Positions 18,201-47,528 of a stretch of DNA of 57,880 bases are shown here, one piece after another; the stretch's first letter is position 1; each line of letters opens with the position of its first letter. Under the pieces are notes generated by a model that worked only from the letters and a program-made list of their open reading frames with translations, did not search any database and was not told the DNA's origin. Location: IMG/VR virus record IMGVR_UViG_3300033388_001119, positions 1-57,880 of that record. One strand, written 5' to 3'. Both the position numbers and the translations under genes were made by a program. The DNA comes from a virus (Duplodnaviria > Caudoviricetes).

Positions 18201-18463
18201 AAAAACTTAAGAAAGATATTATTACCGCTGGAGAGATAGCTGTAAGGGAATTAATTAAGGTAGCTAAAGAAGATATTATAAAATATGATGCAGAAGATGA
18301 CTTAGCAGCTGATAGGTTAAAAAACGCAGCGGCCACAAAAAAGCTAGCGATATTTGATGCATTTGAAATATTAAATAGAATCACTACAGAGAAAGCTATA
18401 TTAGAAGAAAAGCCATTAGAATCTAAAAAATTAACTGGATTTGCTGAAGGAAAAGCAACATAA
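18179..18463 (+). CDS. Probable terminase small subunit
   Basis: Small helical protein directly upstream of TerL; positional inference. Confidence 0.45.
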   Translation: MHEADKIKKLKKDIITAGEIAVRELIKVAKEDIIKYDAEDDLAADRLKNAAATKKLAIFDAFEILNRITTEKAILEEKPLESKKLTGFAEGKAT

Positions 18464-23157: not shown

Positions 23158-24267
23158 ATGGAAAATTGGAAAGTAAGAGAGGTTTCAGCAGACCCTGAAA
23201 AGAGTACTGCGGAAATTGAAAAAGAATTAGTAGAGAAAGCAGAAGCTAAATTTGCAGAAGGTGAAGAGTCGCCTACTGAAGAGGTTTCTGAAGAAAAAAT
23301 TGATGACAAATCCACAAGTCAGGAAGTTCCTGTTACGGACGAATCAATACCCCCTCAGTTAAATGAGGAACAAGTTCTTTCTTTTTTGAAAAACAGATAT
23401 GATAAAGAGATAAACACTTTGGATGACTTAGTTAATACTAAGACTGAAGAAATGCCTCAAGAAGTTTCTGATTATTTGACGTTTAAGAAAAACACTGGTA
23501 AATCTTTTGATGAGTTTTTAAAATTCAATAGAGATTTCGATAATATAGACGATGATTCTGTATTAAAAGAGTTTTACGCTTCAACTAAAAAACATTTAGA
23601 TTCTGATGATATTGACTTTGAGTTAAAAAATAAATTTGGATACGATGAGGAAATAGATGCGGATGATACGGTCAGAAAAATCAAAATATCTAAAAAAGAG
23701 GAAGTATTAAAGGCGAGGCAATACTTTAAAGATCGAAAAGACGAATACCTCAAACCTGTTGAGTCAACAAAAACAGAGGCGCCAATCGTGACAAATGAGC
23801 CAAACCAAAGTACGGATAAAGTGAATGTTAAAGAAGAAGCTGAGAAAAGAATGAGTCACTTTACTAAAAAAACTGAAGAATACTTTAATGATACATTTAA
23901 TGGTTTTAATTTTAAAATTGGAGATGATGTCATTAGTTATAACACAGGTGAATTAAGTAAAGTAAAAACAAACCATTCTGATCTTAATAACTTTATAAAA
24001 CAACATATTACGGAAGATGGGTTTTTAACTGATGCTGAAAAGTATCACAAATCCTTAGCCGCTGCTTTTGACCCTGATGGATTAGCTAAATTCTTTTATG
24101 AGAAGGGTAAGGCTGATGCTGTCACTAATGATGTTAAATCAACAAAAAACATCGACATGGGATTAAGAAAAGCACCGGTAACAAGTAGTAAGGGTGAGTT
24201 TAAAGTTAGTGCTGTCAAAACAAGTCACGGAAATTCGTTAAAAATTAGAAGTAATAGGAATAAATAA
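23158..24267 (+). CDS. Probable capsid scaffolding protein
   Basis: Acidic helical protein between portal and capsid genes. Confidence 0.65.
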   Translation: MENWKVREVSADPEKSTAEIEKELVEKAEAKFAEGEESPTEEVSEEKIDDKSTSQEVPVTDESIPPQLNEEQVLSFLKNRYDKEINTLDDLVNTKTEEMPQEVSDYLTFKKNTGKSFDEFLKFNRDFDNIDDDSVLKEFYASTKKHLDSDDIDFELKNKFGYDEEIDADDTVRKIKISKKEEVLKARQYFKDRKDEYLKPVESTKTEAPIVTNEPNQSTDKVNVKEEAEKRMSHFTKKTEEYFNDTFNGFNFKIGDDVISYNTGELSKVKTNHSDLNNFIKQHITEDGFLTDAEKYHKSLAAAFDPDGLAKFFYEKGKADAVTNDVKSTKNIDMGLRKAPVTSSKGEFKVSAVKTSHGNSLKIRSNRNK

Positions 24268-24294: not shown

Positions 24295-25716
24295 ATGAGT
24301 TTAGCAGCAATTCCCGGACCGGCATTAACCCCTTCTTCATCGAAGGTGCCTTTGAAGGAAAACTATATTAACAACTTCGATTTCTTAAATCAGTACTTAC
24401 CTGATACTTATGAAAAAGAATTTGAAAGATATGGTAACAGAACAATTTCAGCTTTTTTAAGAATGGTAGGAGCTGAGCTTCCAACTAACTCTGACTTAAT
24501 CAAATGGGCAGAGCAAGGAAGATTACATACCAAATTCGTAGGGTGTACAACACAGAACGGAGCTGGAGCTGTTGGCACACCAGTTACTTGGTTAACAGGT
24601 GGTTTAGCAGCTGGTAATAACCCAGTATGTAACTTTAGAATAGGACAAACTGTTTTCATTTCAGAAGATGGTGGTGCTACTTCAAATAAAGGTATCATTA
24701 CTTCAGTTGGTGTAGGTACAGATGATGAGTTTACAGTAGCTTACTACGAAGCAGACCAAAATGTACCAGCAGCTACAGGATGTAGTGTGTTTGTTTACGG
24801 ATCTGAATTCAGAAAAGGAACCGAAGGAATGATTGGTTCTTTAGAATCTGAAGACATTTTCTTAGAAAACAAGCCTATCATCATTAAAGATAAGTACGCT
24901 GTTAACGGATCAGATATGGCGCAAATCGGATGGGTAGAAGTATCTACTGAAGATGGAGCTACAGGATACCTATGGTACCTAAAGTCTGAGCACGAAACAA
25001 GATTACGTTTTGATGATTACTTAGAGATGGCAATGATTGAAGGAGTAGCAGCTGAAGCTGGCTCTGGAGCATTGGCTGAACTTTCTCCAGGTGGTGCAGG
25101 TGTAACAACTGACGCTGGTACAGAAGGTATGTTCGAAGCAATCTCAACTAGAGGTAATGTTTATTCAGGCGTTCCAGCTAACTTAGCTGATTGGGATACT
25201 ATTATCGAAAGACTAGATAAGCAAGGAGCAATCCAAGAAAATGTAGTTTTCGTTAATAGAGATATGTCTTTTGCAATTGATGACATGTTAGCAGCTCAAA
25301 ACTCTTACGGACAAGGTGGTACTTCTTACGGATTGTTTGACAATGACGAAGAAATGGCACTTAACCTTGGGTTTAAAGGGTTCAGAAGAGGTTATGACTT
25401 CTACAAGTCTGATTGGAAATACTTAAACCAAGTAACCCTACGTGGTGACATCGATGGTGGAAAAGTAAGCGGTACTTTAGTGCCAGCTGGTTCTACTAAC
25501 GTATATGACCAAATTATGGGAAGAAACGCTAAAAGACCATACTTACACGTAAGATACAGAGCTTCAGAAACTGAAGACAGAAAGTATAAAACGTGGATTA
25601 CAGGTAGTGCTGGCGGTGCCGCAACAAGTTCTCTAGATGCTATGGAAGTACACTTCCTATCTGAAAGAGCTCTTTGTACAATGGGCGCAAACAACTTTGT
25701 AATCTTTAAAGACTAA
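24295..25716 (+). CDS. Major capsid protein
   Basis: Position; 473 aa; QYLPDTYEKEFERYGNR and WAEQGRLH recalled from this phage group; strong terminator downstream. Confidence 0.88.
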   Translation: MSLAAIPGPALTPSSSKVPLKENYINNFDFLNQYLPDTYEKEFERYGNRTISAFLRMVGAELPTNSDLIKWAEQGRLHTKFVGCTTQNGAGAVGTPVTWLTGGLAAGNNPVCNFRIGQTVFISEDGGATSNKGIITSVGVGTDDEFTVAYYEADQNVPAATGCSVFVYGSEFRKGTEGMIGSLESEDIFLENKPIIIKDKYAVNGSDMAQIGWVEVSTEDGATGYLWYLKSEHETRLRFDDYLEMAMIEGVAAEAGSGALAELSPGGAGVTTDAGTEGMFEAISTRGNVYSGVPANLADWDTIIERLDKQGAIQENVVFVNRDMSFAIDDMLAAQNSYGQGGTSYGLFDNDEEMALNLGFKGFRRGYDFYKSDWKYLNQVTLRGDIDGGKVSGTLVPAGSTNVYDQIMGRNAKRPYLHVRYRASETEDRKYKTWITGSAGGAATSSLDAMEVHFLSERALCTMGANNFVIFKD

Positions 25717-28374: not shown

Positions 28375-29289
28375 ATGAATGATATAACCTACTACACTAA
28401 TAATGGTCAAAACCCTACTAACTTAAACTGGGGAAGCTATCAGTATGTATCATTAGAGGATATTGTTAGAAATTTTGAGTTAATGTTTGCTGGTGATGAA
28501 AACCTAGTAAGTAAACAAAACAGATATGTAATTAGATTTCACGCTAAAAGAGGAATCCAAGAAATAAACTATGATGCATTAAAGAATATTAAAATATTAG
28601 AGATGCAGGTTTGCAAAGACTTGAAGTATGTATTACCTCCTGACTATGTAAACTATGTAAGAATATCTCTATATGAAGGTGGTGTATTGTATCCTTTAAT
28701 TGAAAACTTTCAAACTAACTACTCATCAGCTTATCTACAAGACAACAACTGTGAAGTCCTATTTGACTTAGACGGAAACGCCTTAACCCCAAACAACTCT
28801 ACAATTGATATGCAGAGAATAAAAGGGGTAAGACCAACGCTTTATTTAAATTTAGGACACCCCTACCACGAAAGAATGGGGTATTGTTGTGACGGCTTAT
28901 GGTATTTCGACTATGGAGTAGGAGCTCATTATGGCTTAGAAACTTCTTTAGCTAATCAAAACCCTAACTATAGAATAGATAAAAGAGCAGGTGTAATTAA
29001 CTTTAGCTCAGATATGGCAGACAAGTTAGTGGTTTTAGAATATGTATCAGACGGTTTAGAAAAAGGAGATGATGACGAAGTGGTGATAAATAAATTAGCA
29101 GAAGACTATTTATATGCGTACATTAGATGGGCGATATTAGGAAATAAACTAGGAGTTCAAGAATATATTGTTAATAGAGCAAGAAAAGAGAAGACGGCAA
29201 AATTAAGAAACGCTAAAATAAGGTTAGGAAATCTTCACCCAAGTAGATTGCTAATGCCTTTACGTGGCAGAGATAAATGGATTAAATGA
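28375..29289 (+). CDS. Tail ring or adaptor protein 2
   Basis: LPPDYVNYVRI and LEYVSDG; directly before the nozzle gene. Confidence 0.65.
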   Translation: MNDITYYTNNGQNPTNLNWGSYQYVSLEDIVRNFELMFAGDENLVSKQNRYVIRFHAKRGIQEINYDALKNIKILEMQVCKDLKYVLPPDYVNYVRISLYEGGVLYPLIENFQTNYSSAYLQDNNCEVLFDLDGNALTPNNSTIDMQRIKGVRPTLYLNLGHPYHERMGYCCDGLWYFDYGVGAHYGLETSLANQNPNYRIDKRAGVINFSSDMADKLVVLEYVSDGLEKGDDDEVVINKLAEDYLYAYIRWAILGNKLGVQEYIVNRARKEKTAKLRNAKIRLGNLHPSRLLMPLRGRDKWIK

Positions 29290-32200
29290 AAACTACCGGG
29301 ACTTTTACTTCAGGCATAATGAATAAGGATCTCGATGAAAGGCTCATACCAAAGGGTCAGTATCGAGATGCTTTAAATATAGGGGTTTCTACTTCAGAAG
29401 CCTCTAACGTAGGAGCTATAGAGAACATACTAGGAAACGTTCAAGCTGGAGGAGATTTATCTTTTTTAACAGATGACGCTGTTACGATTGGAGCTATAGC
29501 TCAAGGAGATAAGGAACAATTTTTTTGGTTTGTAAGCGACACTAATTTTGATTATGTTTTAAGATACCATGAGCCATCCGACACCACCGCTATACTCTTA
29601 AAAGACACTAAAGGCAGGGTGTTGAAATTTGATAATGAACACATAATAACAGGTGTTAATTTAATAGATGATTATTTATTTTGGACCGACAATTTAAATC
29701 AACCAAGAAGAATATTATCCACTAGAAGTTTTCCTTTAGACGGGTTTGAAGAGGATGATATTAGGGTAATAAGGAAACCACCTTTAAGTCCGGCAACTTT
29801 TATAATGAATAATACTTATCAAGGGACAACAACGCCTTCGTCTGATATTAGGTTTGATAAAACAAATAATATTATACATAAGTATTTTAGGTTTGGTTAT
29901 AGATGGAAATATGAATACAATGAGTATAGTTCGTTGTCACCATTTACCGCTACTGCATTTCAGCCTTTTTTTTATTTCTACAATTATGCCAATGTGAGTT
30001 TTTATTCCATGCAAAATACTTTTGATGAGATTGTATTAAGTGATATAGAAACAGGAGATGAGCAAGTAACAGATATTCAGGTTGTTTTTTATGACGAATA
30101 TACCGGGTCTGTTTATGTGGTTGACACTTTTGATAAGGAAAAAAATGGATGGGGTAATAATACTTCGATTTCCATTAATTTCAATAATAATAAAATATCT
30201 GCACTTTTAGCTAATGATGAAATCACAAGATTATTTGACAACGTACCTTTACGTGCTAAGGCTCAAGAAGTTATTGGAAGCCGATTAATATATGGTAATT
30301 ATGTTCAGGGTTATGACATAAGAAATACTAGAAATGAACCTATAACTATAGATTTTTACGCCGAACCCTTTAGTGTTGATTTCAACTCCCTTACTCTTGG
30401 GGCTAACCCATTTAGTGGAAATTATCCTAGAAGAAGTTTTCATAGCAATCGAAACTATGAAGTAGGGTTAGTTTATTTAGATGATTACGGAAGAATGTCT
30501 ACGGTTCTTACTCCTGAAATACTAAACACTCAGTTTACTAACACAGTAGCAATGGACCCAACCACAGCTACCACTATAAATGACATTAGGGTTTATATCA
30601 ATAGCGAGCCCCCACAATGGGCTTCAAAATATAGAATTTACTTAAAACAATCAGACGCTAATGATTATGTAACTATATGGCCTTTGTTTTCTATAAAGAC
30701 TGGAACAGGTGATTATTGGTTTAAGATTTTAGGGTCTGACGTAGACAAGGTTCCTGAAGGAGCTTATATTTACATTAAAGCCATTAATGGAGTTGCTTTT
30801 GACAGCTCAGAGGAATATAAAGTATTAGAAGTTAAACAGCAAGAAGAAGGTTTTGTTCAAATAGGAAACTCAAACTCAACAGTTGACGCTCCAGCTGGAA
30901 CTTACTTTAAACTACACTCAGAATACGTAGACTTATCTACAGATATAAATGTTTTCGATTCCCAGCAAGTAGATCAAGTAGCTCAAGGTGCTTATTATTG
31001 GGGGTACAGAAATTATGATACTTTTGGAAAATACATAGGGCCATTAACAACAGACCCTGGAGTTGGTTCTTCCGTAATTAACGCAGCTACCGGTGGTTTA
31101 CCTACACAACACATTAAACAAATAGACCCTCCAATTTATTATGGTAATAGTGGTTATTTCAACGAAATAGAACTTAGAAAAAACTGGAAAGCCTCTCCTT
31201 ATGAGACCGATTCTACCAAGGATAGAAGGATTAAAGTTCAGATTTATCCAAATGAAAAATTCATGGTTCAGTTGATGAATAATAGCGGCAACTGGTATAA
31301 TTATCAAACTTGGCAACCAGTTGATATTGCTCCCTACGTAAATAGTGACTACTTAATCGGGGACTCAGGTAATGGAATATGGTGCTATATACGATTTAAT
31401 AAAGGAACTAATTACGTTCCAGGGGATTATTTTATAATAAACATTCACACAGCTTTTGGAGCTAATGTTTTTGGACAGGTACCTGGGGACGATACAGAAG
31501 GAAGTGGAGCTCATTATAAAATATATGAATTTCAAGCGGCTAAATTATGTCTAACGGCTAATCTAGAAGACGGAGGAAGTGCTGATAGTGTCTACGGGTT
31601 ATCACAACCGATGAATGGTTTAAATACCTACCTCCCATTAAGAGATGTACCTATTGAGCCTGGTGCTATAATAGAGATAACTATTGCAGAAGATTATACG
31701 GTGGGGCCAGTCACTAATAACACTATTGGTGATACTGAAACAACCTACACTTCACCACCGTGTTCTAAGCGCTATAAAAACATAGAAGAATGGTGGTATG
31801 AAGAAGAGATATGGAGAGATGTAGAACACAAAACGGCTTACAAGTATCAACAAGACAGCGATATGAGTAGCTTTCAAAATATTAATGGAAAAAGGTTTTT
31901 CTTTAGGAGACTGCTTAATTATAAGTCCTTAGATTGGCAAAGTATTCCTGGAGCAACCGCAAGTGCCGCAATATTTGGTGGTATGGCATATACCTCACAC
32001 GTTGGTGATTTTACTTTAAAAAATTGGTGGCAAGCGTACTCAAACAGAAGTCCACTTGATGATGGAATGGGTAATTACGCCACCTATGCTGAAATGGTTA
32101 CTGAAGAAAGCGGAATTCAAATGTTTGTTTCATCTCAAGGGACTCATATTCAAGAATTTGATACCGATAAGAGAACTGTGATTCAAGTTGCAATGCAGGG

Positions 32201-35200
32201 AAGGGTAAAAATAATACAAACCGCTCCTGATGCTAAACCGATATTAGAAACTAAACCCACCATGGTGGATAACGACATTTTCCATGAAGCTCCATTTACC
32301 TTTGATGTGTTTCCAGGAACAGCAGGAAGACTTCTTCATGAGGGTAATATCGCTAATCAATCTCAAGGAGGTAATCCGGCTATTATTAGCTTAAACCCTT
32401 CATCTACCATATCTAACCCATCATACCCTTTAGACCCAACTCAATTTAATAGTGAGTTTAATTGCTTCACCTACGGAAATGGCGTAGAGGCTACTAAAAT
32501 AAAAGGAGAATTAAGCGAGGCTCATCTTAAATATAGCCCTAGGGTTAGTTCTTTTATTGAAAAATATCAACAAGAATATTTACCGAGTAGCTTAACCTAT
32601 AGTGGGGTTTTTGTAGAAAACACAAATATTAACAACTTAAACGAATTTAATCTTTCCTTAGGTAATTATAAAGACTTAAGTAGAGAGTATGGTCCTGTTG
32701 AAAAACTTCACGCTAGAGATAATGATTTAGTGGCCTTGCAAGAGGATAAAGTATCTAAAGTGCTATATGGTAAAAACTTACTTTCTGACGCCACGGGAGG
32801 AGGTTCTATAGCTTCTATTCCAGAGGTATTAGGAACTCAAATACCATATGTAGGAGAATACGGAATAAGTAATAATCCTGAAAGTTTTGCAGCTTGGGGT
32901 CCTAATATGTTTTTTACAGATGTTAAGAGGGGTTCGGTAATGAGGTTAGGTAGAGATGGGTTGTTTGAGATATCTAATTTAGGTATGACAGATTACTTTA
33001 AAGATTTGAGTTCTAATGAATTTAATAAACAAAAACTAGGATGTATTGACCCATTTAAAGAGCAATATGTTTTATCAAGTACAGAAACTCTAGCGCCAGC
33101 ATGTACTTACTCTTTACGCCCTACATTTATACCTAGGTTCCCTAGAGTAACTAATGGCATTGATTATATCATAGAACTATTTTCTTCTGGAAATTGGCTG
33201 GTAGAGTTTACAGATACCGGTGATGGTACCAACTGGCTTACGGTGAATGGACAAACTCCTTCGTTAGGTGGCTTTGGAGATGAGGTTTTAACATTTAACT
33301 TAACTAACAACGGAGGGCTACAGTCTCCCTCTAGAGAGTGTTTGGTTACATTTACATTTTGTGATGGAAGTACAGCGTCTGAAGTGTTTAAACAATCAGG
33401 AGCGCCAAAATTAGGAGGCTTAGTGTATGGTGTTGGAAAACCTACAGGAGGTAAAAAGGGCCTTGCAACTGGCTTAAAAAACACAACAATTAACTTTCAA
33501 GTAGAAGCTAACCCAGGTGGTTTAGTGCAAGAGTTTATTAACCAACCTATAGGAGTTGATGCTGAGGTTGCAACTCAAAAAGAGACAGTAGGTATAGAAG
33601 GAGAGGACGGTGTTCCAACTAATGGCCAAGATGTAACTATAAGAGCATCTCAAGTAGGTGCTGTAGATACGTTACCATTCTGCTTTCTTTTAGGGCAAAA
33701 AATGTATTATTTAGTTTCAGACACGTTCTATACATCTACCCAAATAGATGAGTTAATAAATGACCCAAACACCGTAGAAATAACTCCTACTCTTAATGTT
33801 GGGACACAGTTATGGGAAGGAACTTATACTTTTAACCGACCTAATGATGAAGCTTATGTGTATAATGTAATAGACTATCGTGCACAAATAGAAGCGTCTG
33901 CTACAGCGCAATTCGATATACCTCTAGAAATGAACAATGTAGCTGACACATTTAGAGGAAAAGTTGATTTTACAAACAAAAACGGAAACGTAGAGTTTGA
34001 TTACATAGCTCCAGCTGGTGGCGCTAGATTTAGAGTGTTGATAGAAGATAGAGTTATAAGTACAACTGGTAGTGTTCCGGTAATAGGAGCAGGGTCGATG
34101 CCTATTTTTAATGTGCCGTTTGATGGCCCTTCTGTTTACGATGTAGAAATAGATTATCTAGGAACTAATGAAGCGGTTAGATTAATTACGCCTCTTCCCA
34201 CTTTAACAGAGTTTAAGTATCAAGTAGCCACAGGCAGTTTAGACCCTACTGATCCAGCTTACGTGTGTTCAGCGATACCAGCGTATTCTTCTAAGTGGCA
34301 TGATGGAACAGCAGCACTTCCTGAAATTGGAAATATTATATATGAAAACCCATTTGGAACTACGCCGATGGTATCTCCTTTAAATATTCACCCTATAGAT
34401 GAAAACCCCGTAGTTGGTGGTAATCAAGAGTGGCTTAAGTTTGATGCGTCATCTACAGGTAAGGTTTTACAAAGAGGAGTGTGTACCCCATGTGCGGAAG
34501 TGGCGGTTCCTGTGATTACTGTTCCAGCTGTATATTCATTTAACACTAATGAAAACGTTAATATCCTACTAGAAGCTACAAATAACCCCACCTCTTTTCA
34601 AATTGTTAGTTCATCACCATGCGTAGGTTATTTATTGAGCTCTCAAGAAGGGGGTGTTGTTTCTTATACTGATTGTGATGGTAATGCAGCTTCTATAACT
34701 ATTCAAGGGACTAATACTAATTCTAGAAACGCACCGGCTTTACCAGCAGTTAATACAAATGATATAACTATCGTGTCTACCACAGTTCCTGTTGTTTCAA
34801 GTGGAAATGTTACGGTTGTAAATAAAGGCTTCAAAACAAACACGCCACAAGGCATGGATTTTGACGGAGAGCAAGGTAGAATTGTTATACCTAACGCACC
34901 GTCAGGAGTTTATGATTTCGAGGTTAGGGCTAGTAACTGCTTTGGAACAAGTAATACTGTGTCTGTAGTAATGGAAATAACAGATAATGTAACGAAAATG
35001 TTCCAAATGGATATAGAAACACCATCACCCACTTCAGCTATAGCTTGTAGCATAACAGCTAGTTATATCCCTATGTTGCACACAGGAGACAATATAAACC
35101 CTCAAGTTAACGACACTATAATATTACCTAGCCCAGATAAGGGTAAGCCAAATACAACAGCCTATGGAGGTTTTGGTTTAGAAAAAGGTGTACTAGAGCC

Positions 35201-35321
35201 TAATTATGATTTCAAAGGGGGTTATAATTGGTATAAAGCTAATTTTGATAGTGGACCAGGAAATGGAAGTGTATTATTAATAGACAACACTGGGGTTGTT
35301 ATAGAAATAGTTGAATGTTAA
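29286..35321 (+). CDS. Tail nozzle (muzzle/stabilisation) protein, N-terminal part, with BACON-like and Ig-like C-terminal domains
   Basis: MNKDLDERL...YRDALNI start; LFWTDNLNQPR; YGISNNPESFA; FFTDVKRG. Confidence 0.78.
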   Translation: MKTTGTFTSGIMNKDLDERLIPKGQYRDALNIGVSTSEASNVGAIENILGNVQAGGDLSFLTDDAVTIGAIAQGDKEQFFWFVSDTNFDYVLRYHEPSDTTAILLKDTKGRVLKFDNEHIITGVNLIDDYLFWTDNLNQPRRILSTRSFPLDGFEEDDIRVIRKPPLSPATFIMNNTYQGTTTPSSDIRFDKTNNIIHKYFRFGYRWKYEYNEYSSLSPFTATAFQPFFYFYNYANVSFYSMQNTFDEIVLSDIETGDEQVTDIQVVFYDEYTGSVYVVDTFDKEKNGWGNNTSISINFNNNKISALLANDEITRLFDNVPLRAKAQEVIGSRLIYGNYVQGYDIRNTRNEPITIDFYAEPFSVDFNSLTLGANPFSGNYPRRSFHSNRNYEVGLVYLDDYGRMSTVLTPEILNTQFTNTVAMDPTTATTINDIRVYINSEPPQWASKYRIYLKQSDANDYVTIWPLFSIKTGTGDYWFKILGSDVDKVPEGAYIYIKAINGVAFDSSEEYKVLEVKQQEEGFVQIGNSNSTVDAPAGTYFKLHSEYVDLSTDINVFDSQQVDQVAQGAYYWGYRNYDTFGKYIGPLTTDPGVGSSVINAATGGLPTQHIKQIDPPIYYGNSGYFNEIELRKNWKASPYETDSTKDRRIKVQIYPNEKFMVQLMNNSGNWYNYQTWQPVDIAPYVNSDYLIGDSGNGIWCYIRFNKGTNYVPGDYFIINIHTAFGANVFGQVPGDDTEGSGAHYKIYEFQAAKLCLTANLEDGGSADSVYGLSQPMNGLNTYLPLRDVPIEPGAIIEITIAEDYTVGPVTNNTIGDTETTYTSPPCSKRYKNIEEWWYEEEIWRDVEHKTAYKYQQDSDMSSFQNINGKRFFFRRLLNYKSLDWQSIPGATASAAIFGGMAYTSHVGDFTLKNWWQAYSNRSPLDDGMGNYATYAEMVTEESGIQMFVSSQGTHIQEFDTDKRTVIQVAMQGRVKIIQTAPDAKPILETKPTMVDNDIFHEAPFTFDVFPGTAGRLLHEGNIANQSQGGNPAIISLNPSSTISNPSYPLDPTQFNSEFNCFTYGNGVEATKIKGELSEAHLKYSPRVSSFIEKYQQEYLPSSLTYSGVFVENTNINNLNEFNLSLGNYKDLSREYGPVEKLHARDNDLVALQEDKVSKVLYGKNLLSDATGGGSIASIPEVLGTQIPYVGEYGISNNPESFAAWGPNMFFTDVKRGSVMRLGRDGLFEISNLGMTDYFKDLSSNEFNKQKLGCIDPFKEQYVLSSTETLAPACTYSLRPTFIPRFPRVTNGIDYIIELFSSGNWLVEFTDTGDGTNWLTVNGQTPSLGGFGDEVLTFNLTNNGGLQSPSRECLVTFTFCDGSTASEVFKQSGAPKLGGLVYGVGKPTGGKKGLATGLKNTTINFQVEANPGGLVQEFINQPIGVDAEVATQKETVGIEGEDGVPTNGQDVTIRASQVGAVDTLPFCFLLGQKMYYLVSDTFYTSTQIDELINDPNTVEITPTLNVGTQLWEGTYTFNRPNDEAYVYNVIDYRAQIEASATAQFDIPLEMNNVADTFRGKVDFTNKNGNVEFDYIAPAGGARFRVLIEDRVISTTGSVPVIGAGSMPIFNVPFDGPSVYDVEIDYLGTNEAVRLITPLPTLTEFKYQVATGSLDPTDPAYVCSAIPAYSSKWHDGTAALPEIGNIIYENPFGTTPMVSPLNIHPIDENPVVGGNQEWLKFDASSTGKVLQRGVCTPCAEVAVPVITVPAVYSFNTNENVNILLEATNNPTSFQIVSSSPCVGYLLSSQEGGVVSYTDCDGNAASITIQGTNTNSRNAPALPAVNTNDITIVSTTVPVVSSGNVTVVNKGFKTNTPQGMDFDGEQGRIVIPNAPSGVYDFEVRASNCFGTSNTVSVVMEITDNVTKMFQMDIETPSPTSAIACSITASYIPMLHTGDNINPQVNDTIILPSPDKGKPNTTAYGGFGLEKGVLEPNYDFKGGYNWYKANFDSGPGNGSVLLIDNTGVVIEIVEC

Positions 35322-39224: not shown

Positions 39225-42200
39225 ATGAGTGTAAACAATTTTTTAAACGACTTTTATGTAGAAAATACTGGTCAAGCTCCAACAGAAGAGATGGTTACTA
39301 GGATTACTCAGCAATACGGAGATAATTATGACGGTTTAATTAATGACTTAGCTATAGAGATTGGGGGAGCTAAAGAAGTAAATACCGATATAATAAATAA
39401 GATAAAGACTCAATACAATTTGATGAGTGTGAACAACACTCCTAACACTCCTGACACTCCTGTAAAAAAAAAAGGAGAAACTATTACTACTCAAGAGGAT
39501 GTTATGGTTTCCGATTCAAATGGAGAGGAAGATATTATTTCATCGGACTCTTTAGAAGTTCAGCCAACAACTGATACAGACCCACCTAATAAAGCTTTTG
39601 GTAGAGTTAGCGATAAGGATGTGTACGTAAGCGAAAGTTCACCTGAGGTAAAATTCAATCCTATATATAAAGGTCAACAACCATCTACTCATTTAATGAG
39701 GGCTGAGCAATTAGAGAATGGTGATTGGGTTGGATTCCCCTCTTTAATGCAAGATAAAAACGGAGATTGGATTAATATGTCTTATTTACCAGATGAAGAT
39801 TGGGAGCAAATATATAAAAAAGCAGACGAGTTAGGAGAGGTGGTTAATTTTGGTAGCGATAAAGAATCGGCTTTAGCTTATGGTGAAGGCTCATGGAAAG
39901 AGAGTTATAATAAAGGTGAACATTCAGAAAGTTTATATGAGAAGAAAATAGCAGCTGATACCAAAAAGCTTTTGCAAGAACAGAGTGACGCTATTGAAGA
40001 GGAAGCGAAAGAAAGGCAAGAAAGGGAAGACTCTAGAATGGAAATTACCAACACCGTTGGTTATGATGATGGTCCAGGTAGTACATTTGGAATGTATAAA
40101 ATAGAAATACCAGAGTATACTGACCTTGCAGACCCTAAAAGAGATTATGCAGCTAGTGTTATAGGTGAGCTGTATGAGGGGACCCTAGGACTTAATGACG
40201 ATGGTAGTTTAATTATGCCTACTCCAAACCAAATGATGGGTGGTGATAATATTTTTTATTACGGACCTCAAGAAGCTACCGCAATGATTCAAGCGTTTAG
40301 TGAAGATGGTTTTTTTGGAGATGATAAATGGACGCTTAAGCAGATGTATGAGAATAATCCAGTTAATAACTATATGCAAGCTCAATACAATAACGGAGCT
40401 CAATCATATGGAAGTATAGATGGTTACATGAGAAGTAAGTATCCTGGTTATAATTCTATAGCCGACACACATAAAGAATATGAAGGTGGTAATTACGGTA
40501 TAAAAGATTGGGATAATATTTCTGAAGATGATGCTAACTTTATTAGGATGAAGTTTAATTCTAGAGCAGGAGATTTAACTATTAATAGCGCTAACACAGC
40601 TGATAAAAATAACGCTTACTTAAGAGCTGGACTATACGATTTAAAAACAGACATCACTTATGAGGTGACTAAACTAAATGCTTTAAATCAAGACTTATTG
40701 TATAACAATTATACTATGGCAGCTATTCCTTTAGAGGAGTTAAGTAAAAATGAAAAGAAGCAATATGAGGAAAACATGCGTAAAATGCTTGCGCTAACAG
40801 CTGATTATAATATGGTAAATCAAGAATGGGCTAACCTTCAAGAACCGGACTTACGAATGTATAACCCATTTACAAATCAACTAATAGATGCCTCAAATCC
40901 TAATTCTCAATTGATAGGGAATTATAATGATAAAATAGACGAAGAGGCAGCTAAGCTTGCTATAGAAAAGAATCCGAAAGAACTGCAAGAAGCTTTTGAT
41001 GTGAACTATCAGCATGTAATGAACTTAGCGAAGAAGATTAAATTAAACTATAAATACAACAAACCAGTAACACATAACGGAGTAACATACCAAAAGGGAG
41101 ATGTTATTGATAGAACTAATTTACAAGTAGTAGCTGAGTGGATGGGCGAAATGGGTGGGGTAAATGAGTATGAAGACCTTGCAATGAACCCATTAGCATT
41201 AGTGTCAGGTCAGCCTACAGAAGATTTAATAGACATGTTCCCTGATCCAGAAGCGGTAGTAGCCTCCGCTGGGTTTCCTATGATAACTAGTAACACGGAG
41301 ATAGCTATGGAATACAATAGGGCTATTTATGAGCTAGCAGTAATCAATACAGCGTTAAAAGAAAATAGAGACCCTAGTAAACTACAAAAGGGAGAAAGCA
41401 TTGTGACTGGTTCTTTAATTGGCTCTGGGCGTGTAAAAAACAACGGAACCTTAGATTACGTTTATAATAACATGGATGAAGGTGATAATGAGTTACCTTT
41501 TTATGTATCTACCCTAGCCGAAATGGATAAAACACTACCTGAAACTGCTAGGTTTCTTAATAGAGTTAACGAGGGGTTTTGGAGCACATTATATGGAGAT
41601 GCTACAGGAGAATATTTATTTGGAAACGTTTATAACCAAGCAAGCTACCTTTCTACAGCTCTTGATAAAGTAGGACTAGAGGGTAGTTACATAGACGACT
41701 TAAGGACTAGGTCACAACCAGATAATATAGATTTTGCAGGTGGGTTAACAGGAACTGTATTTGGAATAGTTTTAGAATTTGGTGGAGCACAGGGATTATT
41801 AAAAGCGCCAGCTGCTATAGCTGAAGGTGTTATGGCTACTGAACTTTTAACCGTAGGAGGAGCAACTGAAAAGGTTACTAGGGGATTAACATATACTAAT
41901 ATAGATAAAGTCTTTGGGTCTGCTTATGAATTAAACAGACTGAAGTTGATATCAGGTGGTAGCCCATACACTATATTTGGTAGTAATGTAGTATTAAGGT
42001 CCATGCAAGGTGGTATCGAGTTTGGTACAACAGGATTAGTCTTAGATAAAACAGATGAATATAGGTGGCGAGATGGGTTAGCTTTTGGTGCTGGTTATGG
42101 AATATATAGTGAAATGGGAGCTCTTATTAGTAGAAGCCCGTCATACCAAAAAATATCTCAAAAGGTAAATGATTTTAAATACAGTTATACCCCGTCCGTA

Positions 42201-45200
42201 GGTGTATATAAAAAACCAAGTATCCTTCAAAGAATCAAACAAGGAGGTATCGGTACAGCTCAAGCGACTACAAAAGTTGCAGGAAGCGCCGCTATTGGTA
42301 CAGGTATTTCGTATGCCATAGAGTTATTTGATGAAACAATTTCTCCTGACGACCCCTTAATGGCCGAGCAGCTAAACAACTTACCAGAGGAGATTCAAGG
42401 AAACTCTAAAGCACTAACTACTTTTTACACATTTGCAGGATTAGGACTCTTAAACAAATCACTTGGTAAGCAATTAATGACAGACATAAAAGGTTTAAAA
42501 CCATTTGATGTATCCTTTAATCATTTCTTTAGAAGTCAAGAAGCTTATCGTGCTTGGAAGAATAAACAAGGAACTCCACAAGGCATGAAGCTACTAACCG
42601 AAGGCGCTAAAGATGTAATGGAGAATGGAACACCAGAACAAAAACAAAACTTAAAAAACCAAGAAGCTATATCCTCGTATAATAATGGTTTAACTGAGGC
42701 GAAAAATGAAATATATAAGTACGATAAAAAAGTAGAGGATTATAATAATTCTATTTCTGTTGTTAATAGTGTAAATAACAACCCTTCTAAAAAACCAAAC
42801 AATATACCTGTAAAGCCGGTGCCTAACGCTCAAGGAGACGGAGAGATAGAGGTTCCTGACAATGGAACTGAAGAAGGTAACTTGCAGAATATTGAAAATA
42901 TTATTTCCACTCCATCGAAAGATTTAGAAAACGCAGCTAAAGGAGAAGTGAAAGATGGAAACATTTCAGAAGAAAATGGAATGAATGGAATAAACGCTGT
43001 TCAAGATGTGTTAGCCACTAATAGTAAAGTAAAAGGAATTCAGAACACTAAAGTTAGAGCTAGAGCGGTCCAAGCACTACAGACTAAGAAAGAACTACAA
43101 AGAGAGTTAGATAAATTAAATGAGGACCACAAGAATGGTGTGGTGGCTAACTTTGAAGCAGAAAAAAAGAATCTAGAGGAAAAGATTAAAAACGTTGATC
43201 AACAAATTACTGAAATAGAAAGCTACGAAGAAACAGAAGCTGACTACGTAACTGACTTAATTAAAAATAAAGATAGACGCAATCACGATGTTAGTGGACC
43301 TGGAATCCCAGGGTTAAAGGAAAAGTATCCTAAGTTAGCGGAGTTCTTACAACAAAAACACGCAGAAGGTATGACACCTGTAGAGGCGTTAAAAGAATAT
43401 CAAAAGCAACCGCCTGAGGTTACAGAGGTTGAGTCAAAAGCAGAAGTTGTAGAGGGAGAGGGTGGCGCTCCAGTTAGTGGTAAACAGGACTTACCGACAG
43501 CATCAACTGAACAGTCAGCGGAAACCACACAAGAGAGTAATCAAAATGTAGAAGAAGTTGTACAAGAAACTGCACAAGAAACAGTAGTAAAACCTTCTAA
43601 ATTTACTTGGGATCCAATCCAAGAAGCATTTGTAGAATCAACTCCTCCCGAAACTTTAGAAGTATCTGTTAGTGGTAATTTTGATGGCTTAAGAACACAG
43701 GGGAAAGAGACTATGGATTTACGAGGTGACGCTAGAGGTAAAGATGGTGAGATAATAGAAACTAAAAACAAAGAAGGCGAAACAGTTTTAACCTTAGTAA
43801 AAGAAACTTACGACGCTGAGGGGAGACCTGGATATGTAGGCGTGTCAGTTACTTTACCTGAAGGTAGTACTAAAACAGCTGATGATGTTAGAGCTGAGCT
43901 AGAGAATCAAATGAATAAACTAACTAATGGGGAGGATATTTCAGGAAAAAGTTTTAGTAATATTAATGATTTAAACCCCTCAGCTGTAGATAAAAATGTA
44001 GAATTTAAAACACAAGAAGATGCCATTCAAGAGCCAAGCGCAGAGAGCGTACCTGTACAAGAATCACCCGGAGATAGCGAAGCGGTGGTCGAAAGCGTAC
44101 CCGAACCAGAGGTCGCTCCCGAAAAAGTTGAAGTCGAAGAAAAAATCGAAGTTGAGGAGACGCCGAAAGAAGAAGTAATAGAAGCAGAGGTAGTTGAAGA
44201 GCCTGTAGTAGATAATAAGGAACCTAGACAACCTGGTAAAGTAGAACAACCACCTAAAAGAGGTTCTCAAATAGACCAAGACTTAGACGCTGTTATTAAT
44301 AGCGGCACGAAAGGAGAGGCTTTATTAAGACAAAACTTAGAAGCTAAAGGATATAGAAAAGACCAAATAGATAGAGCGATTAGAAGAAAAGATAGAGAAG
44401 CTTTAGTCGAGTTAAAAAATCTAAAGAAAGACTTACAGTTACAAGGTAAAGCTAATAAGAAGTATACTGTTAAAGCCACGGATGAATTTAAGAAGCAGCT
44501 TAAAGATGTTATTGATAGATTAGCCGGTGATAGGAATATAAAATTTACTAAAGGCGAACTAAATAAAATACTAGAAGCGGCTACAGGTACCGAAATGCAA
44601 GGTCTTAAAGTGGAAAAAGCGATAGAGAAAGCGGTGGAAGTGGTAGAGAAAAGTGTTAAGCGTTCATTAAATAACAACATTAATGACTTACTTAAACTTA
44701 AAAATGTAGAGAAAAAACAAGGAAAAAGAAAGGTAGGAAAAATTAGCATTGACTCTAGAAGACAATTTAACGACTTGAGAGATGAGTGGAAAAAAATTAA
44801 TCCTAAAGATTTAACTATAGGTGAAATGGAGGCTATAGAAACTGAATTAAGTAGTTTGATTTATGAAGGTAAACTAGCTGTAGAGCCTGCGCAACGCATA
44901 ATAAGAGACACTAGAAGAAGTGTTAAAGGTCAAGTAAATGAATCACTATACAGTGATCAAACTCCAAAGACAGATTTTAAAAACGGGGTACCTGACGTAG
45001 AAGCTTATTTAAAAGATAATACTAATAATTTTGTGATTATAAACGGTCGTCAAGTTAGTTCTGTCTCTGGGCTTAATGATTTTATTAAAGACAATCCGTT
45101 TGTAGATGTATCTCAAGCTAAAGGATATGTAGCTACTACTCCAGCAGAAGCAGCTCAAGCAGGTAGACCTAGCATATTAAGCGGTTTAAAATATTGGACT

Positions 45201-47528
45201 CTAGATAATTGGCAAACTATTAGAAATACAACTGCTAAACTGAGAGGTAGAGGAGGTAAAGCTGTTCATAAAAACGTGACATCTTTAATTGATAATATAT
45301 ATAGGTCGGAGTATAGGGAAATTGTAGGTAAACATCAAACTAGAGAATATGTGAGGAGTCAAATAAAAGACATCCCAGGCTACTCTAATAACAAACTAGG
45401 GAGAATAGAATTTAAAAACTACTTAACTAACTCGGCTCCAAGTAATATTACTACTAGTAAAAATTTAGACATAACAAACGACCAGGCGGTCTATATGTAT
45501 TTATTAGGAAAAAGAGATGGTGTAAAAAGATTGGAAGATAATAAGATAGACCCATTAGCTTTAAGTAATTATATAGAAAATAATCCAGCATTAAAAACCT
45601 GGGCTAGTAAAGTGGCTAAGATATTTGGTCAATATGGATATGATAGATATAATGAAAGATATGAGGTTATCACCGGTAAACCAATGCCAAAGGCTAGTGG
45701 AGAAATTACCGCTAGTATGGAGGGTGACCCTACAAGTGTATATATACCTATTCAGATAAATCCCGATGTAGCCCCTGTGGACCCGTTTGGAGAAAAGGGT
45801 GAAGACGCTCAATATTCAGGGCTTAACGTTTTGTCAGCTCACTTATTAGAGAAAACTAGTGACAGAGGAGCTACAAAAATAATTGGAACCATGGATGCTA
45901 TGGATAGATACTTTACTACTATGGAACATATGAGCGCTTTTTATGATGTAGCTCAACAATATAACAACATATTCAATCCTCAAGCTAGACCTCAAATGAT
46001 AAACATATTAGGAAGGGGAGGTTCTAATAAATTAGACAAAATAATGGAAGTTCTTAATGAGGGGATTACTGGAAACAGAAGAGTTACTATTGGAGATAGA
46101 GATAAAATAGATAAGACGATAACTCAAATTGGTAGATTTCCGGTCTTCTGGGGACTAGCTGGAAAGACTAAAACAATGATAGGACAAGCTAGTAGTGGTG
46201 TAGCCTATCCAAAAGAGTTCTTAAAATACTTAACCCCTAAGGAGTTAGTAGGTGGATACATGAATGTAGGTAAAGGGTTGATAGGTAAAGGTGCTTCTGT
46301 GGCACAACAGTTAGGTATTAAAAAACCCACTGATAAAAGAATTCTAGAGGAAGATACATTTTTCTTAGAAAAATGGGTAACCGACCCTCAGTTTGCTGAC
46401 AGGTGGAATAAAAATAAAATAGATCCCTTATTTCAAATACAAGATGTTGGGGGCGGAAAAGATTTATGGGATAGAGCAGCTAATGTGCTTCTTTTGGGTG
46501 TAAAAACAGGAGACATGATGGCTTTACAAATGGGTGTCGGTGGAACAAACGCCCTATATCATAAGTACATTAACGAAGGAATGAGTAAAGAAGATGCGTA
46601 TGATAAAGCGGCTGGTATTTATTACATGATAACTCAAGAAGCTCAACAAACAGGAAGTAGGCTAGGGTTACCAGATTACCTTAATAATAGGTTTAGTAGA
46701 GCAGGAATTACTTTTACTACTAGTATTAACTCTATAATGAATAAAGGAGTTGGGGGTGGAAAAGAGTTTTACTATAGAGGTAAAGATATGACTGGAGGTG
46801 AGAAACTTCACGCTTTAACAGACCTTGGTTTTTATACAACAGTTTTATCTGGATTATTCATATCCCTCGTGGGTCAAGATGATGAACGAGAAAAAGAAAT
46901 TGAAATGTTAAAGACAAGGTACCCAAACACTTTTGACGACAATCAGGCTACTACGAAAAAAAATATTTCTTTTGGACTAGACTTAATACAAAGTGATTTA
47001 CAAGGTTTAGGACCCGTTGGTGTTGTTGGGAATATGTTTTTAAACTCAGACGCTATTAATCCATTTGACTTTCATAGAGGTAAGCCTCAAAGTTTCAGTG
47101 AGCTACCTTTGACTTCTGCCGCAAAGAAAGTATATAATGCTATGGATGTAATGACTAACGCTAAAGGAGAAACTTATGAGGAAAAATATAACAGTTTAAG
47201 TGATTATGAAAAATATCAAGTAGATGCAGCTTATGGGGCTTTTGGTAAGTTCATGGAACGCATGGAAAAAGCAGGAAAAGGAGAAGTAAGTTTAATAGAT
47301 TTTATAATGGAAAGAGATGAGGATTATGGGTTAACAAGAAGACGAATGGAAGAGATGGATGGGGATAAGATATTAGATTGGGTGTATTATATGTACACTG
47401 GTATAAGACCTCCTCAAGAAGCAATAGGTGGTAATGCAGGCACAGGCTCTACATATAAGAAGACAGAGAGTAAATCTACTTACGAAACAAAAAGTAATTA
47501 TGATGAGGGAAGTACTTATGGTAATTAA
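39225..47528 (+). CDS. Giant probable ejection protein (2767 aa)
   Basis: Last late gene; Gly-rich hydrophobic middle, acidic linker, helical C-terminal half; no catalytic motif recognised. Confidence 0.7.
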   Translation: MSVNNFLNDFYVENTGQAPTEEMVTRITQQYGDNYDGLINDLAIEIGGAKEVNTDIINKIKTQYNLMSVNNTPNTPDTPVKKKGETITTQEDVMVSDSNGEEDIISSDSLEVQPTTDTDPPNKAFGRVSDKDVYVSESSPEVKFNPIYKGQQPSTHLMRAEQLENGDWVGFPSLMQDKNGDWINMSYLPDEDWEQIYKKADELGEVVNFGSDKESALAYGEGSWKESYNKGEHSESLYEKKIAADTKKLLQEQSDAIEEEAKERQEREDSRMEITNTVGYDDGPGSTFGMYKIEIPEYTDLADPKRDYAASVIGELYEGTLGLNDDGSLIMPTPNQMMGGDNIFYYGPQEATAMIQAFSEDGFFGDDKWTLKQMYENNPVNNYMQAQYNNGAQSYGSIDGYMRSKYPGYNSIADTHKEYEGGNYGIKDWDNISEDDANFIRMKFNSRAGDLTINSANTADKNNAYLRAGLYDLKTDITYEVTKLNALNQDLLYNNYTMAAIPLEELSKNEKKQYEENMRKMLALTADYNMVNQEWANLQEPDLRMYNPFTNQLIDASNPNSQLIGNYNDKIDEEAAKLAIEKNPKELQEAFDVNYQHVMNLAKKIKLNYKYNKPVTHNGVTYQKGDVIDRTNLQVVAEWMGEMGGVNEYEDLAMNPLALVSGQPTEDLIDMFPDPEAVVASAGFPMITSNTEIAMEYNRAIYELAVINTALKENRDPSKLQKGESIVTGSLIGSGRVKNNGTLDYVYNNMDEGDNELPFYVSTLAEMDKTLPETARFLNRVNEGFWSTLYGDATGEYLFGNVYNQASYLSTALDKVGLEGSYIDDLRTRSQPDNIDFAGGLTGTVFGIVLEFGGAQGLLKAPAAIAEGVMATELLTVGGATEKVTRGLTYTNIDKVFGSAYELNRLKLISGGSPYTIFGSNVVLRSMQGGIEFGTTGLVLDKTDEYRWRDGLAFGAGYGIYSEMGALISRSPSYQKISQKVNDFKYSYTPSVGVYKKPSILQRIKQGGIGTAQATTKVAGSAAIGTGISYAIELFDETISPDDPLMAEQLNNLPEEIQGNSKALTTFYTFAGLGLLNKSLGKQLMTDIKGLKPFDVSFNHFFRSQEAYRAWKNKQGTPQGMKLLTEGAKDVMENGTPEQKQNLKNQEAISSYNNGLTEAKNEIYKYDKKVEDYNNSISVVNSVNNNPSKKPNNIPVKPVPNAQGDGEIEVPDNGTEEGNLQNIENIISTPSKDLENAAKGEVKDGNISEENGMNGINAVQDVLATNSKVKGIQNTKVRARAVQALQTKKELQRELDKLNEDHKNGVVANFEAEKKNLEEKIKNVDQQITEIESYEETEADYVTDLIKNKDRRNHDVSGPGIPGLKEKYPKLAEFLQQKHAEGMTPVEALKEYQKQPPEVTEVESKAEVVEGEGGAPVSGKQDLPTASTEQSAETTQESNQNVEEVVQETAQETVVKPSKFTWDPIQEAFVESTPPETLEVSVSGNFDGLRTQGKETMDLRGDARGKDGEIIETKNKEGETVLTLVKETYDAEGRPGYVGVSVTLPEGSTKTADDVRAELENQMNKLTNGEDISGKSFSNINDLNPSAVDKNVEFKTQEDAIQEPSAESVPVQESPGDSEAVVESVPEPEVAPEKVEVEEKIEVEETPKEEVIEAEVVEEPVVDNKEPRQPGKVEQPPKRGSQIDQDLDAVINSGTKGEALLRQNLEAKGYRKDQIDRAIRRKDREALVELKNLKKDLQLQGKANKKYTVKATDEFKKQLKDVIDRLAGDRNIKFTKGELNKILEAATGTEMQGLKVEKAIEKAVEVVEKSVKRSLNNNINDLLKLKNVEKKQGKRKVGKISIDSRRQFNDLRDEWKKINPKDLTIGEMEAIETELSSLIYEGKLAVEPAQRIIRDTRRSVKGQVNESLYSDQTPKTDFKNGVPDVEAYLKDNTNNFVIINGRQVSSVSGLNDFIKDNPFVDVSQAKGYVATTPAEAAQAGRPSILSGLKYWTLDNWQTIRNTTAKLRGRGGKAVHKNVTSLIDNIYRSEYREIVGKHQTREYVRSQIKDIPGYSNNKLGRIEFKNYLTNSAPSNITTSKNLDITNDQAVYMYLLGKRDGVKRLEDNKIDPLALSNYIENNPALKTWASKVAKIFGQYGYDRYNERYEVITGKPMPKASGEITASMEGDPTSVYIPIQINPDVAPVDPFGEKGEDAQYSGLNVLSAHLLEKTSDRGATKIIGTMDAMDRYFTTMEHMSAFYDVAQQYNNIFNPQARPQMINILGRGGSNKLDKIMEVLNEGITGNRRVTIGDRDKIDKTITQIGRFPVFWGLAGKTKTMIGQASSGVAYPKEFLKYLTPKELVGGYMNVGKGLIGKGASVAQQLGIKKPTDKRILEEDTFFLEKWVTDPQFADRWNKNKIDPLFQIQDVGGGKDLWDRAANVLLLGVKTGDMMALQMGVGGTNALYHKYINEGMSKEDAYDKAAGIYYMITQEAQQTGSRLGLPDYLNNRFSRAGITFTTSINSIMNKGVGGGKEFYYRGKDMTGGEKLHALTDLGFYTTVLSGLFISLVGQDDEREKEIEMLKTRYPNTFDDNQATTKKNISFGLDLIQSDLQGLGPVGVVGNMFLNSDAINPFDFHRGKPQSFSELPLTSAAKKVYNAMDVMTNAKGETYEEKYNSLSDYEKYQVDAAYGAFGKFMERMEKAGKGEVSLIDFIMERDEDYGLTRRRMEEMDGDKILDWVYYMYTGIRPPQEAIGGNAGTGSTYKKTESKSTYETKSNYDEGSTYGN
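39464..39511 (+). other. Candidate -1 frameshift or slippage signal (A10 plus hairpin)
   Basis: GTA AAA AAA AAA GGA; stem GAAACTAT 39477-39484 with ATGGTTTC 39504-39511. Confidence 0.55.
44020..44178 (+). CDS. Nested +1-frame basic protein (52 aa, MPFKSQAQRAYLYKNHPEIAKRW...)
   Basis: Hand translation; A-rich leader; local rise in GC; N-terminus recalled from stand-alone small phage proteins. Confidence 0.75.
   Translation: MPFKSQAQRAYLYKNHPEIAKRWSKAYPNQRSLPKKLKSKKKSKLRRRRKKK

Follow-up and report, generated by a model that had tools for sequence, protein, structure and literature searches.

The stretch of DNA analysed here, which we call the window, is the whole 57,880-bp record IMGVR_UViG_3300033388_001119 of a tailed phage, estimated to be about 95% complete. 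Its plus strand carries a giant gene of 2767 amino acids (aa) at 39225..47528, and a second open reading frame (ORF) on the same strand, at 44020..44178, lies wholly within it in the +1 frame relative to the giant. ORF listing and translation give the small ORF an ATG start, a TAA stop and a 52-aa product, exactly as the original prediction, made from the sequence alone, had described it. Over the bases of the small gene (hereafter the nest), the giant's frame (44019..44177, about 53 codons) reads as an acidic DAIQEPSAESVPVQESPGDSEAVVES... linker. The claimed pairing of an acidic main frame with a basic +1 frame holds when charges are counted: the small frame has 21 Lys and Arg against a single Asp or Glu, and the host frame, read over the same bases, has 3 Lys and Arg against 18 Asp and Glu. 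Immediately upstream, at 43990..44019 on the plus strand, lies a leader that is rich in A and in purines and weakly structured as judged by composition and predicted folding, and that we propose as the internal initiation region; 12 of the 20 bases 5' of the ATG are A, in agreement with the A-rich leader noted before. The local rise in GC content was also recovered, at 0.48-0.50 over 44000-44150 versus roughly 0.28-0.40 nearby. Such a rise alone is not diagnostic of nesting, because a second acidic linker of the giant protein, at 43400-43550, reaches the same 0.48-0.50 without an alternative-frame ORF. From the ORF, its family membership and the pattern of single-nucleotide polymorphisms (SNPs), we consider it highly probable that 44020..44178 codes in two frames, one supplying the acidic linker of the giant protein and the other a complete 52-aa basic gene of a widespread family.

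The length of the small ORF is by itself unremarkable. It is the longest of 346 same-strand ATG ORFs found in alternative frames over 31.4 kb of long genes, and the second-longest in the window has 50 aa. What places it above chance is its homologues, which reach E 1e-12 in a database of 5.8 billion proteins. The next longest alternative-frame ORFs overlap each other at 7415-7570 within the gene at 6913-8457 (50 aa in +2 and 42 aa in +1), and an antisense ORF of 160 aa occupies 44267-44749 on the minus strand, within the giant gene and just 3' of the nest.

In that collection, all 45 candidates stood at E<=0.01 (best 1e-12), and all are called small proteins. These relatives are 42-69 aa long and have in common a core of about 36 residues at the N-terminus, MPFKS-x-AQR ... 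HPEIAKRW ... YPNQ..LP, followed by a tail rich in Lys and Arg. With the window protein as the first row of the alignment of 45, residues M1, P2, F3, S5, Q8, P17 and A20 are invariant and K4, E18 and I19 nearly so. The window protein is 43-67% identical to the other aligned members and, with 52 aa and 21 Lys and Arg, fits the family's length class of about 40-70 aa with a basic C-terminal tail. A scan of IMG/VR with the family alignment found at least 422 loci with a relative. Among GenBank phages, tblastn matched 16 records, the best matches running from query residue 1 and falling exactly at small-gene starts. Seawater phage 023Pt_psg01 has an annotated free-standing coding sequence of 39 aa (E 9e-4, with 74% identity across 23 residues), Streptomyces phage FlowerPower and phages related to it have an annotated free-standing coding sequence of 72 aa, gp48, that matches the window protein, and phage C75C1 has a matching ORF of 34 aa that is unannotated; in all three the same N-terminal core is followed by a Lys-rich tail. 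The stand-alone family of small phage proteins that the original prediction had pointed to thus exists, as the 023Pt_psg01 and FlowerPower genes and the 45 called proteins attest, and the homology search it had proposed for the 52-aa peptide recovered stand-alone homologues. The window protein is like the other members of this unnamed basic family in its core from Met1, its length class and its basic tail; the known GenBank and ESM Atlas members are free-standing, whereas the window member is nested.

AlphaFold2, run with the family alignment, placed helices at residues 6-15 and 17-26 (predicted local distance difference test, pLDDT, 86-93) and a less confident tail helix at 40-51, with a mean pLDDT of 79. 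Residues 1 to about 36 are predicted to form a conserved two-helix core, a helical hairpin. A Pfam scan of the 52-aa protein gave no family even at E<=10, and a PHROGs scan gave nothing significant, its sole match being phrog_14657 at E 0.24. Searched by profile, PDB sequences yielded nothing for the small-protein family beyond a chance hit, a designed protein at E 1.6. All relatives that Foldseek retrieved from BFVD are uncharacterised, and none reached E<=0.001. In the ESM Atlas the small protein falls among unnamed viral clusters (score 0.94). The nearest named cluster there (0.81), 37% of whose members carry DUF3008 (PF11450), is a lead only: DUF3008 proteins are small viral proteins like the window protein, and membership is not supported by the Pfam scan. 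A literature search at the level of abstracts found no description of this small-protein family or of its nesting.

Locus comparisons were made on the best 80 of the at least 422 IMG/VR family loci. At 48 of these 80 the small gene lies wholly inside a same-strand host ORF, without exception (48/48) in the +1 frame of that ORF. At 16 loci the hosts are giant same-strand frames of 1261-3576 aa, several of them cut by contig ends, and at 32 the host is a gene of about 400 aa located between the portal gene and the gene for the major capsid protein. Thirty-one of these 32 hosts form one BLAST cluster, L034 being cut by a contig end, and hosts of this type start at an ATG of their own, with a conserved N-terminus some 60 codons 5' of the nest. 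The other loci of the 80 are free or ambiguous: at L008, L026, L028, L031 and L054 the small ORF lies in frames of 150-701 aa whose reality is uncertain and which were not counted as nested, and L057 had no match to the motif pattern used for classifying the 80 loci. Once the nest is masked, BLAST groups the hosts into several clusters, and a BLASTP comparison of the window giant with the remaining host ORFs, masked likewise, gave no match. At four of the 80 loci the core is also the in-frame N-terminus of a longer protein, namely L029:10001-12781 (926 aa), L027:3422-4741 (at least 440 aa), L051:9832-10389 (186 aa) and L060 (186 aa). These long proteins have no Pfam family and no BLASTP match to the giants; weak PHROGs matches were to phrog_1375, whose function is unassigned there (L029 E 0.004; L051 E 0.006).

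Truly free copies have 1-14 stops in the frame that hosts use, so the family as such does not come with an open host frame. The codon for Phe3 is TTC in all 35 nested copies inspected and TTT in all 12 free copies inspected. TTC keeps the host frame open in nested copies, since TTT followed by the Lys codon creates a TAA there. A separate set of loci was ascertained through the host, being found only via the C-terminal domain of the approximately 400-aa gene (the best 80 of at least 570 IMG/VR loci, 78-100% identity). A lack of conservation of the +1 frame had been named beforehand as an observation that would speak against dual coding; in this set the nested ORF is intact in 78 of the 80 orthologues. 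Seventy copies are canonical, with TTC and ATG each in 70/70, and eight carry a variant allele of 37 aa that starts MPFKH and is likewise basic and intact (L092, L093, L094, L097, L100, L103, L110 and L120). The variant suggests allele or cassette exchange within the nest.

A phase test was performed on the 70 canonical copies (56 unique sequences, 41 codons). Pairwise differences in the nest numbered 5638, 5677 and 12515 at positions 1, 2 and 3 of the small frame, and those in an equal-length host-only control numbered 8270, 3603 and 26333 at positions 1, 2 and 3 of the host frame. The most variable positions of the nest are thus the third positions of the small frame, and host third positions vary about five times less in the nest than in the control. 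Nucleotide identity is 0.874 in the nest versus 0.798 in the control, and over the same bases amino-acid identity is 0.862 in the small frame versus 0.745 in the host frame. For the window's own lineage, Logan contigs from four public metagenome runs, belonging to three studies, were compared over 43400-44800; two RNA runs that were listed as well matched small shares, 0.12 and 0.07, of the sampled words. In the contigs compared, eight SNPs are listed in the nest: seven fall at third positions of the small frame, silent in that frame but altering host residues (E>K and K>E among the changes), and the eighth is an R>K change in the small protein that is synonymous in the host. The differences listed within 44020-44178 include no indels in the four runs. 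Taken together, these patterns indicate that the nested small frame is under purifying selection. The claim of true dual coding is sustained by nesting in +1 only, by the periodicity of the small frame, by the reduced synonymous variation of the host, by codon choice and by the SNP pattern.

The ATG is invariant in nested copies, whereas the host codon overlapping it varies between D, N, Y and H. In the window the A fraction of the 20 bases 5' of the ATG is 0.60 versus 0.38 in the host, a share above that of 94% of the host-gene windows sampled, and the predicted folding free energy (dG) from -30 to +30 is -1.8 kcal/mol versus a host mean of -6.9. The same features recur at 34 nested loci, where predicted structure over the 60 nt around the ATG is weaker than in about 93% of windows from the same host gene (median percentile 0.07) and the 20 nt 5' of the ATG are more A-rich than about 97% of them (median percentile 0.03). 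The leader and the invariant ATG fit internal initiation on the host messenger RNA (mRNA). The small protein would be made by internal initiation at this ATG on the late mRNA of the giant gene, the A-rich unstructured leader giving ribosomes access to it. Such a start would suit hosts that, like the Bacteroidota, are not known to rely on Shine-Dalgarno pairing.

Several points weigh against dual coding by a conserved small gene. In two of the 80 host-ascertained orthologues (L115 and L118) the small ORF has lost its ATG and acquired stops, with the host frame open across a shortened linker; the decay site lies about 30-60 codons 5' of the LPEN anchor of the approximately 400-aa host. The small gene is dispensable or relocated in some phages, these two contigs being short fragments whose genomes may hold a relocated copy elsewhere. 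The 8 variant and 2 lost loci were left out of the phase test, and an earlier phase test, on loci retrieved with the small protein, was biased by that ascertainment. In the window lineage, constraint rests on the 8 listed SNPs, with 59 further differences beyond those listed, and the source sample may itself be one of the four metagenome runs. No relative of the giant's C-terminal 1042 aa turned up in IMG/VR, which leaves locus-specific constraint to the SNPs and made a synonymous-constraint analysis on direct orthologues of the giant impossible. Accordingly, the synonymous-constraint check that had been proposed came out positive for the approximately 400-aa hosts, in which host synonymous sites are suppressed, and found no homologues on which to operate for the giant itself. 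The A-rich leader could partly or simply reflect host coding rich in Lys and Glu. Lastly, searches of Pfam, PHROGs, PDB, the ESM Atlas and BFVD gave no annotated homologue from which to assign a function.

The giant gene is the last gene of a plus-strand virion block. Upstream of it, all on the plus strand, are genes for the terminase (18441-20684, phrog_6681), the portal (20685-23117, phrog_6547), a 369-aa product in scaffold position (23158..24267), the major capsid protein (24295-25716, phrog_13704) and a muzzle protein of 2011 aa (29286-35321; PF25731 crAss_MUZ at E 1.2e-10, above cut-off, and phrog_14478). Three further genes separate the muzzle gene from the giant. The muzzle match to PF25731 and the four PHROGs (phrog_6681, phrog_6547, phrog_13704 and phrog_14478) identify the window phage as crAss-like. 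By gene position, the giant's product is probably virion-internal or ejected. The 369-aa gene between portal and major capsid protein is orthologous by tblastn to the approximately 400-aa hosts and is without a nested copy. Giant-type loci are syntenic with the window, with the order muzzle, 259-aa gene, giant. A blastn search of 42000-46000 against GenBank phages gave no match.

About 100 codons 3' of the nest begins a conserved C-terminal module of the giant, of about 950 aa, whose profile matches at residues of about 1750-2698 convert to 44469..47315 on the plus strand. This C-module is common to many phage proteins of 1000-3085 aa (34 at E<=1e-3, 17 at E<=1e-10). The N-terminal part of the giant is homologous to the N-terminal parts of two of them, P0056 and P0065. 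Because the N-part and the C-module co-occur in these two proteins, we regard the giant as a genuine single gene architecture. Clear nest footprints are found in P0065, P0066, P0079 and P0081. Ahead of its C-module, P0056, a relative of the giant, has in its linker a degenerate DAVQ-type stretch that the footprint profile fails to match and that may be what is left of a decayed nest. Among the 16 giant loci, C-module profiles link the window giant to L006, L009 and L014 only, and in addition to G005 and L059.

Exactly one family-profile match per genome was found in eight near-complete genomes: the window, four of the giant type (99-100% complete) and three of the approximately 400-aa type (96-100% complete). 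G005, of the approximately 400-aa type and 59% complete, has its copy in the gene between portal and major capsid protein; its 2969-aa giant, with a C-module match at E 4.6e-32, is without a nest footprint and without an alternative-frame ORF of at least 40 aa. At L059:1408-10180 a giant of the same family (2860 aa, C-module E 4e-55) is followed after 10 nt by a free-standing small gene that has 9 stops in the host-like frame, and this locus represents the un-nested state beside the same host gene. Free copies also occur in the head module. In L005 the portal gene is followed 8 nt later by the small gene, then by a scaffold gene (phrog_3927) and the gene for the major head protein, and the free copies of L058 and 023Pt_psg01 have a similar setting. 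In a tree of 56 distinct cores (36 columns), which was used for the intermixing of the three states alone and not for event counts, 29 of the 53 inner branches are unresolved; giant-nested, approximately 400-aa-nested and free forms are mixed together in it, and several switches of state are required by branches with good support. The small gene is kept in one of two different virion genes, or free, in abundant marine crAss-like phages.

These distributions bear on which partner came first. The small gene is the older one, with the acidic linker of the host reading over it: it is found free in unrelated phages, actinophages among them, its predicted fold is conserved, its host positions are non-homologous, and what the host reads across the nest shows little conservation and is for the most part set by the small gene. 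The statement that the small gene was overprinted on the acidic linker therefore has the direction reversed, in view of the free-standing homologues in many unrelated phages. De novo overprinting was considered and rejected for related reasons: the embedded frame is neither younger nor restricted, having free homologues in unrelated phages and non-homologous hosts. The nest would instead have arisen when a small gene that already existed was engulfed by, or inserted into, a disordered linker, and this gene would since have moved between free-standing and nested states.

Same-strand nesting has precedents. In the spanins of phage lambda, Rz1 is wholly embedded in the +1 frame of Rz; Rz1 is an outer-membrane lipoprotein with a signal peptide and a lipobox Cys, and the pair belongs to the lysis cassette. 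As in the window pair, a larger gene contains a complete small one on its own strand and in its +1 frame; the small one has an internal start, as presumed for the window small gene, and related phages show embedded, overlapped or separate arrangements, as in the small-gene family. Unlike Rz1, the window small protein has no Cys and no hydrophobic signal and is strongly basic, with no sequence relation to spanins; unlike the lysis cassette, its hosts are genes of the head and virion modules, and the host segment is a disordered acidic linker. Phage phiX174 offers the overprinted pairs B in A and E in D. Classical viral overprinting is treated in a review (PMC8227390). Overprinting of that kind resembles the window in having two frames on one stretch, one partner disordered or of low complexity and synonymous variation constrained. 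It differs in that the embedded frame is classically novel and taxonomically restricted, whereas in the window the embedded gene is older and widespread and the host reading derived. Same-strand +1 nesting is thus already known; an old, widespread, single-copy gene carried in alternative virion genes would be new.

Could the small frame be a by-product of the acidic linker, whose GAA-type codons become AAG-type in +1? A Glu-rich frame is necessarily Lys-rich in +1, and an alternative-frame ORF of 50 aa exists elsewhere in the window. Composition cannot, however, yield a conserved, non-repetitive core, and homology over the full core extends to hundreds of free and nested genes; the annotated free-standing genes among them exclude translations of linkers in the wrong frame as the source of the matches. 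There is practically no chance that the frame is fortuitous. Nor is it at all probable that the giant ORF is an assembly chimera or a sequencing error that joins two genes across a free-standing small gene, even though the site invites such an error. Contig depth at 44011-44057 is 38, 363, 154 and 80 in the four runs versus about 5-8 on the flanks, and Logan contigs break there. The first 45 nt or so of the small gene are nearly the same in many co-occurring phages, which makes the site prone to mis-joins, none of the contigs compared spans the whole nest with long flanks, and L059 provides a free-standing copy beside a giant gene. Contigs ending at 44011-44057 were seen to have unrelated loose ends, A-rich or diverse. 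Against a mis-join, the N-part and the C-module occur together in the independent proteins P0056 and P0065, giants read through the nest in 16 independent assemblies, and the window copy has TTC and no host-frame stop, where free copies have 1-14. The absence of listed indels within the nest in the four runs also argues against a sequencing error.

If the giant is real, the small frame might still be silent or be read in some other way. A recently engulfed relic, unexpressed and decaying, would be in keeping with the two clearly decayed copies among 80 host orthologues and with P0056, a relative of the window giant whose sole trace of the nest is a degenerate footprint in the host frame. In the window, however, the copy is intact and is the only one in a genome about 95% complete; seven of the eight SNPs listed for near relatives leave the small protein unchanged, its low-complexity tail included, and the 78 intact orthologues show small-frame coding periodicity. 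We give a relic only a slim chance. Programmed frameshifting, in place of internal initiation or besides it, is very unlikely as well. Ribosomes on the giant gene could slip by +1 to make a truncated giant with a basic tail, or ribosomes starting at the internal ATG could slip by -1 and fuse the small-protein core to the C-terminal module. In all nested copies the host frame is indeed offset by -1 from the small frame, and the core does form the in-frame N-terminus of long proteins at L029 (926 aa), L027 (at least 440 aa) and L051 and L060 (186 aa each). Those long forms are without homology to the giants, though, and the leaders and stop contexts as aligned show no conserved slippery motif, no dedicated search for one having been run. 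Initiation is favoured over frameshifting because the ATG is invariant over a variable host codon and because free copies are complete genes with their own stop.

With dual coding by internal initiation as the preferred reading, what the small protein does can be addressed in tentative terms. Its basic tail, the free copies in the head module and the nested hosts in the virion block prompt the guess that it is a late, head-associated protein that binds DNA or acidic internal capsid proteins, a guess we would call doubtful in its present form. Somewhat less doubtful, yet still tentative, is the idea that the small gene is a nomadic nested cassette whose -1 frame has been purged of stops and which has switched repeatedly among two virion genes and the free state, always in single copy, so that nesting itself may be functional. 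The purged -1 frame would then read as a harmless acidic linker inside different virion-protein genes. Nesting could tie the synthesis of a polycationic head protein to that of polyanionic internal proteins, which the polycation might neutralise or accompany into the capsid.

Genes nested in another frame are never reported by standard gene callers, and for this reason the small gene is missing from the annotation of marine crAss-like phages, even though the phage group is very abundant, with at least 570 IMG/VR loci for the approximately 400-aa host alone. Its conserved 5' end of about 45 nt breaks metagenome assemblies, which matters for the recovery of these phages. The locus would be a clean natural case of same-strand dual coding in a double-stranded DNA phage, running opposite to textbook overprinting, and the family offers many independent natural replicates of frame sharing, visible in the switch between TTC and TTT and in the purging of stops. 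It would also provide a test case for internal initiation in hosts possibly without initiation led by Shine-Dalgarno sequences, and its product is a candidate for a new small virion or head-assembly protein.

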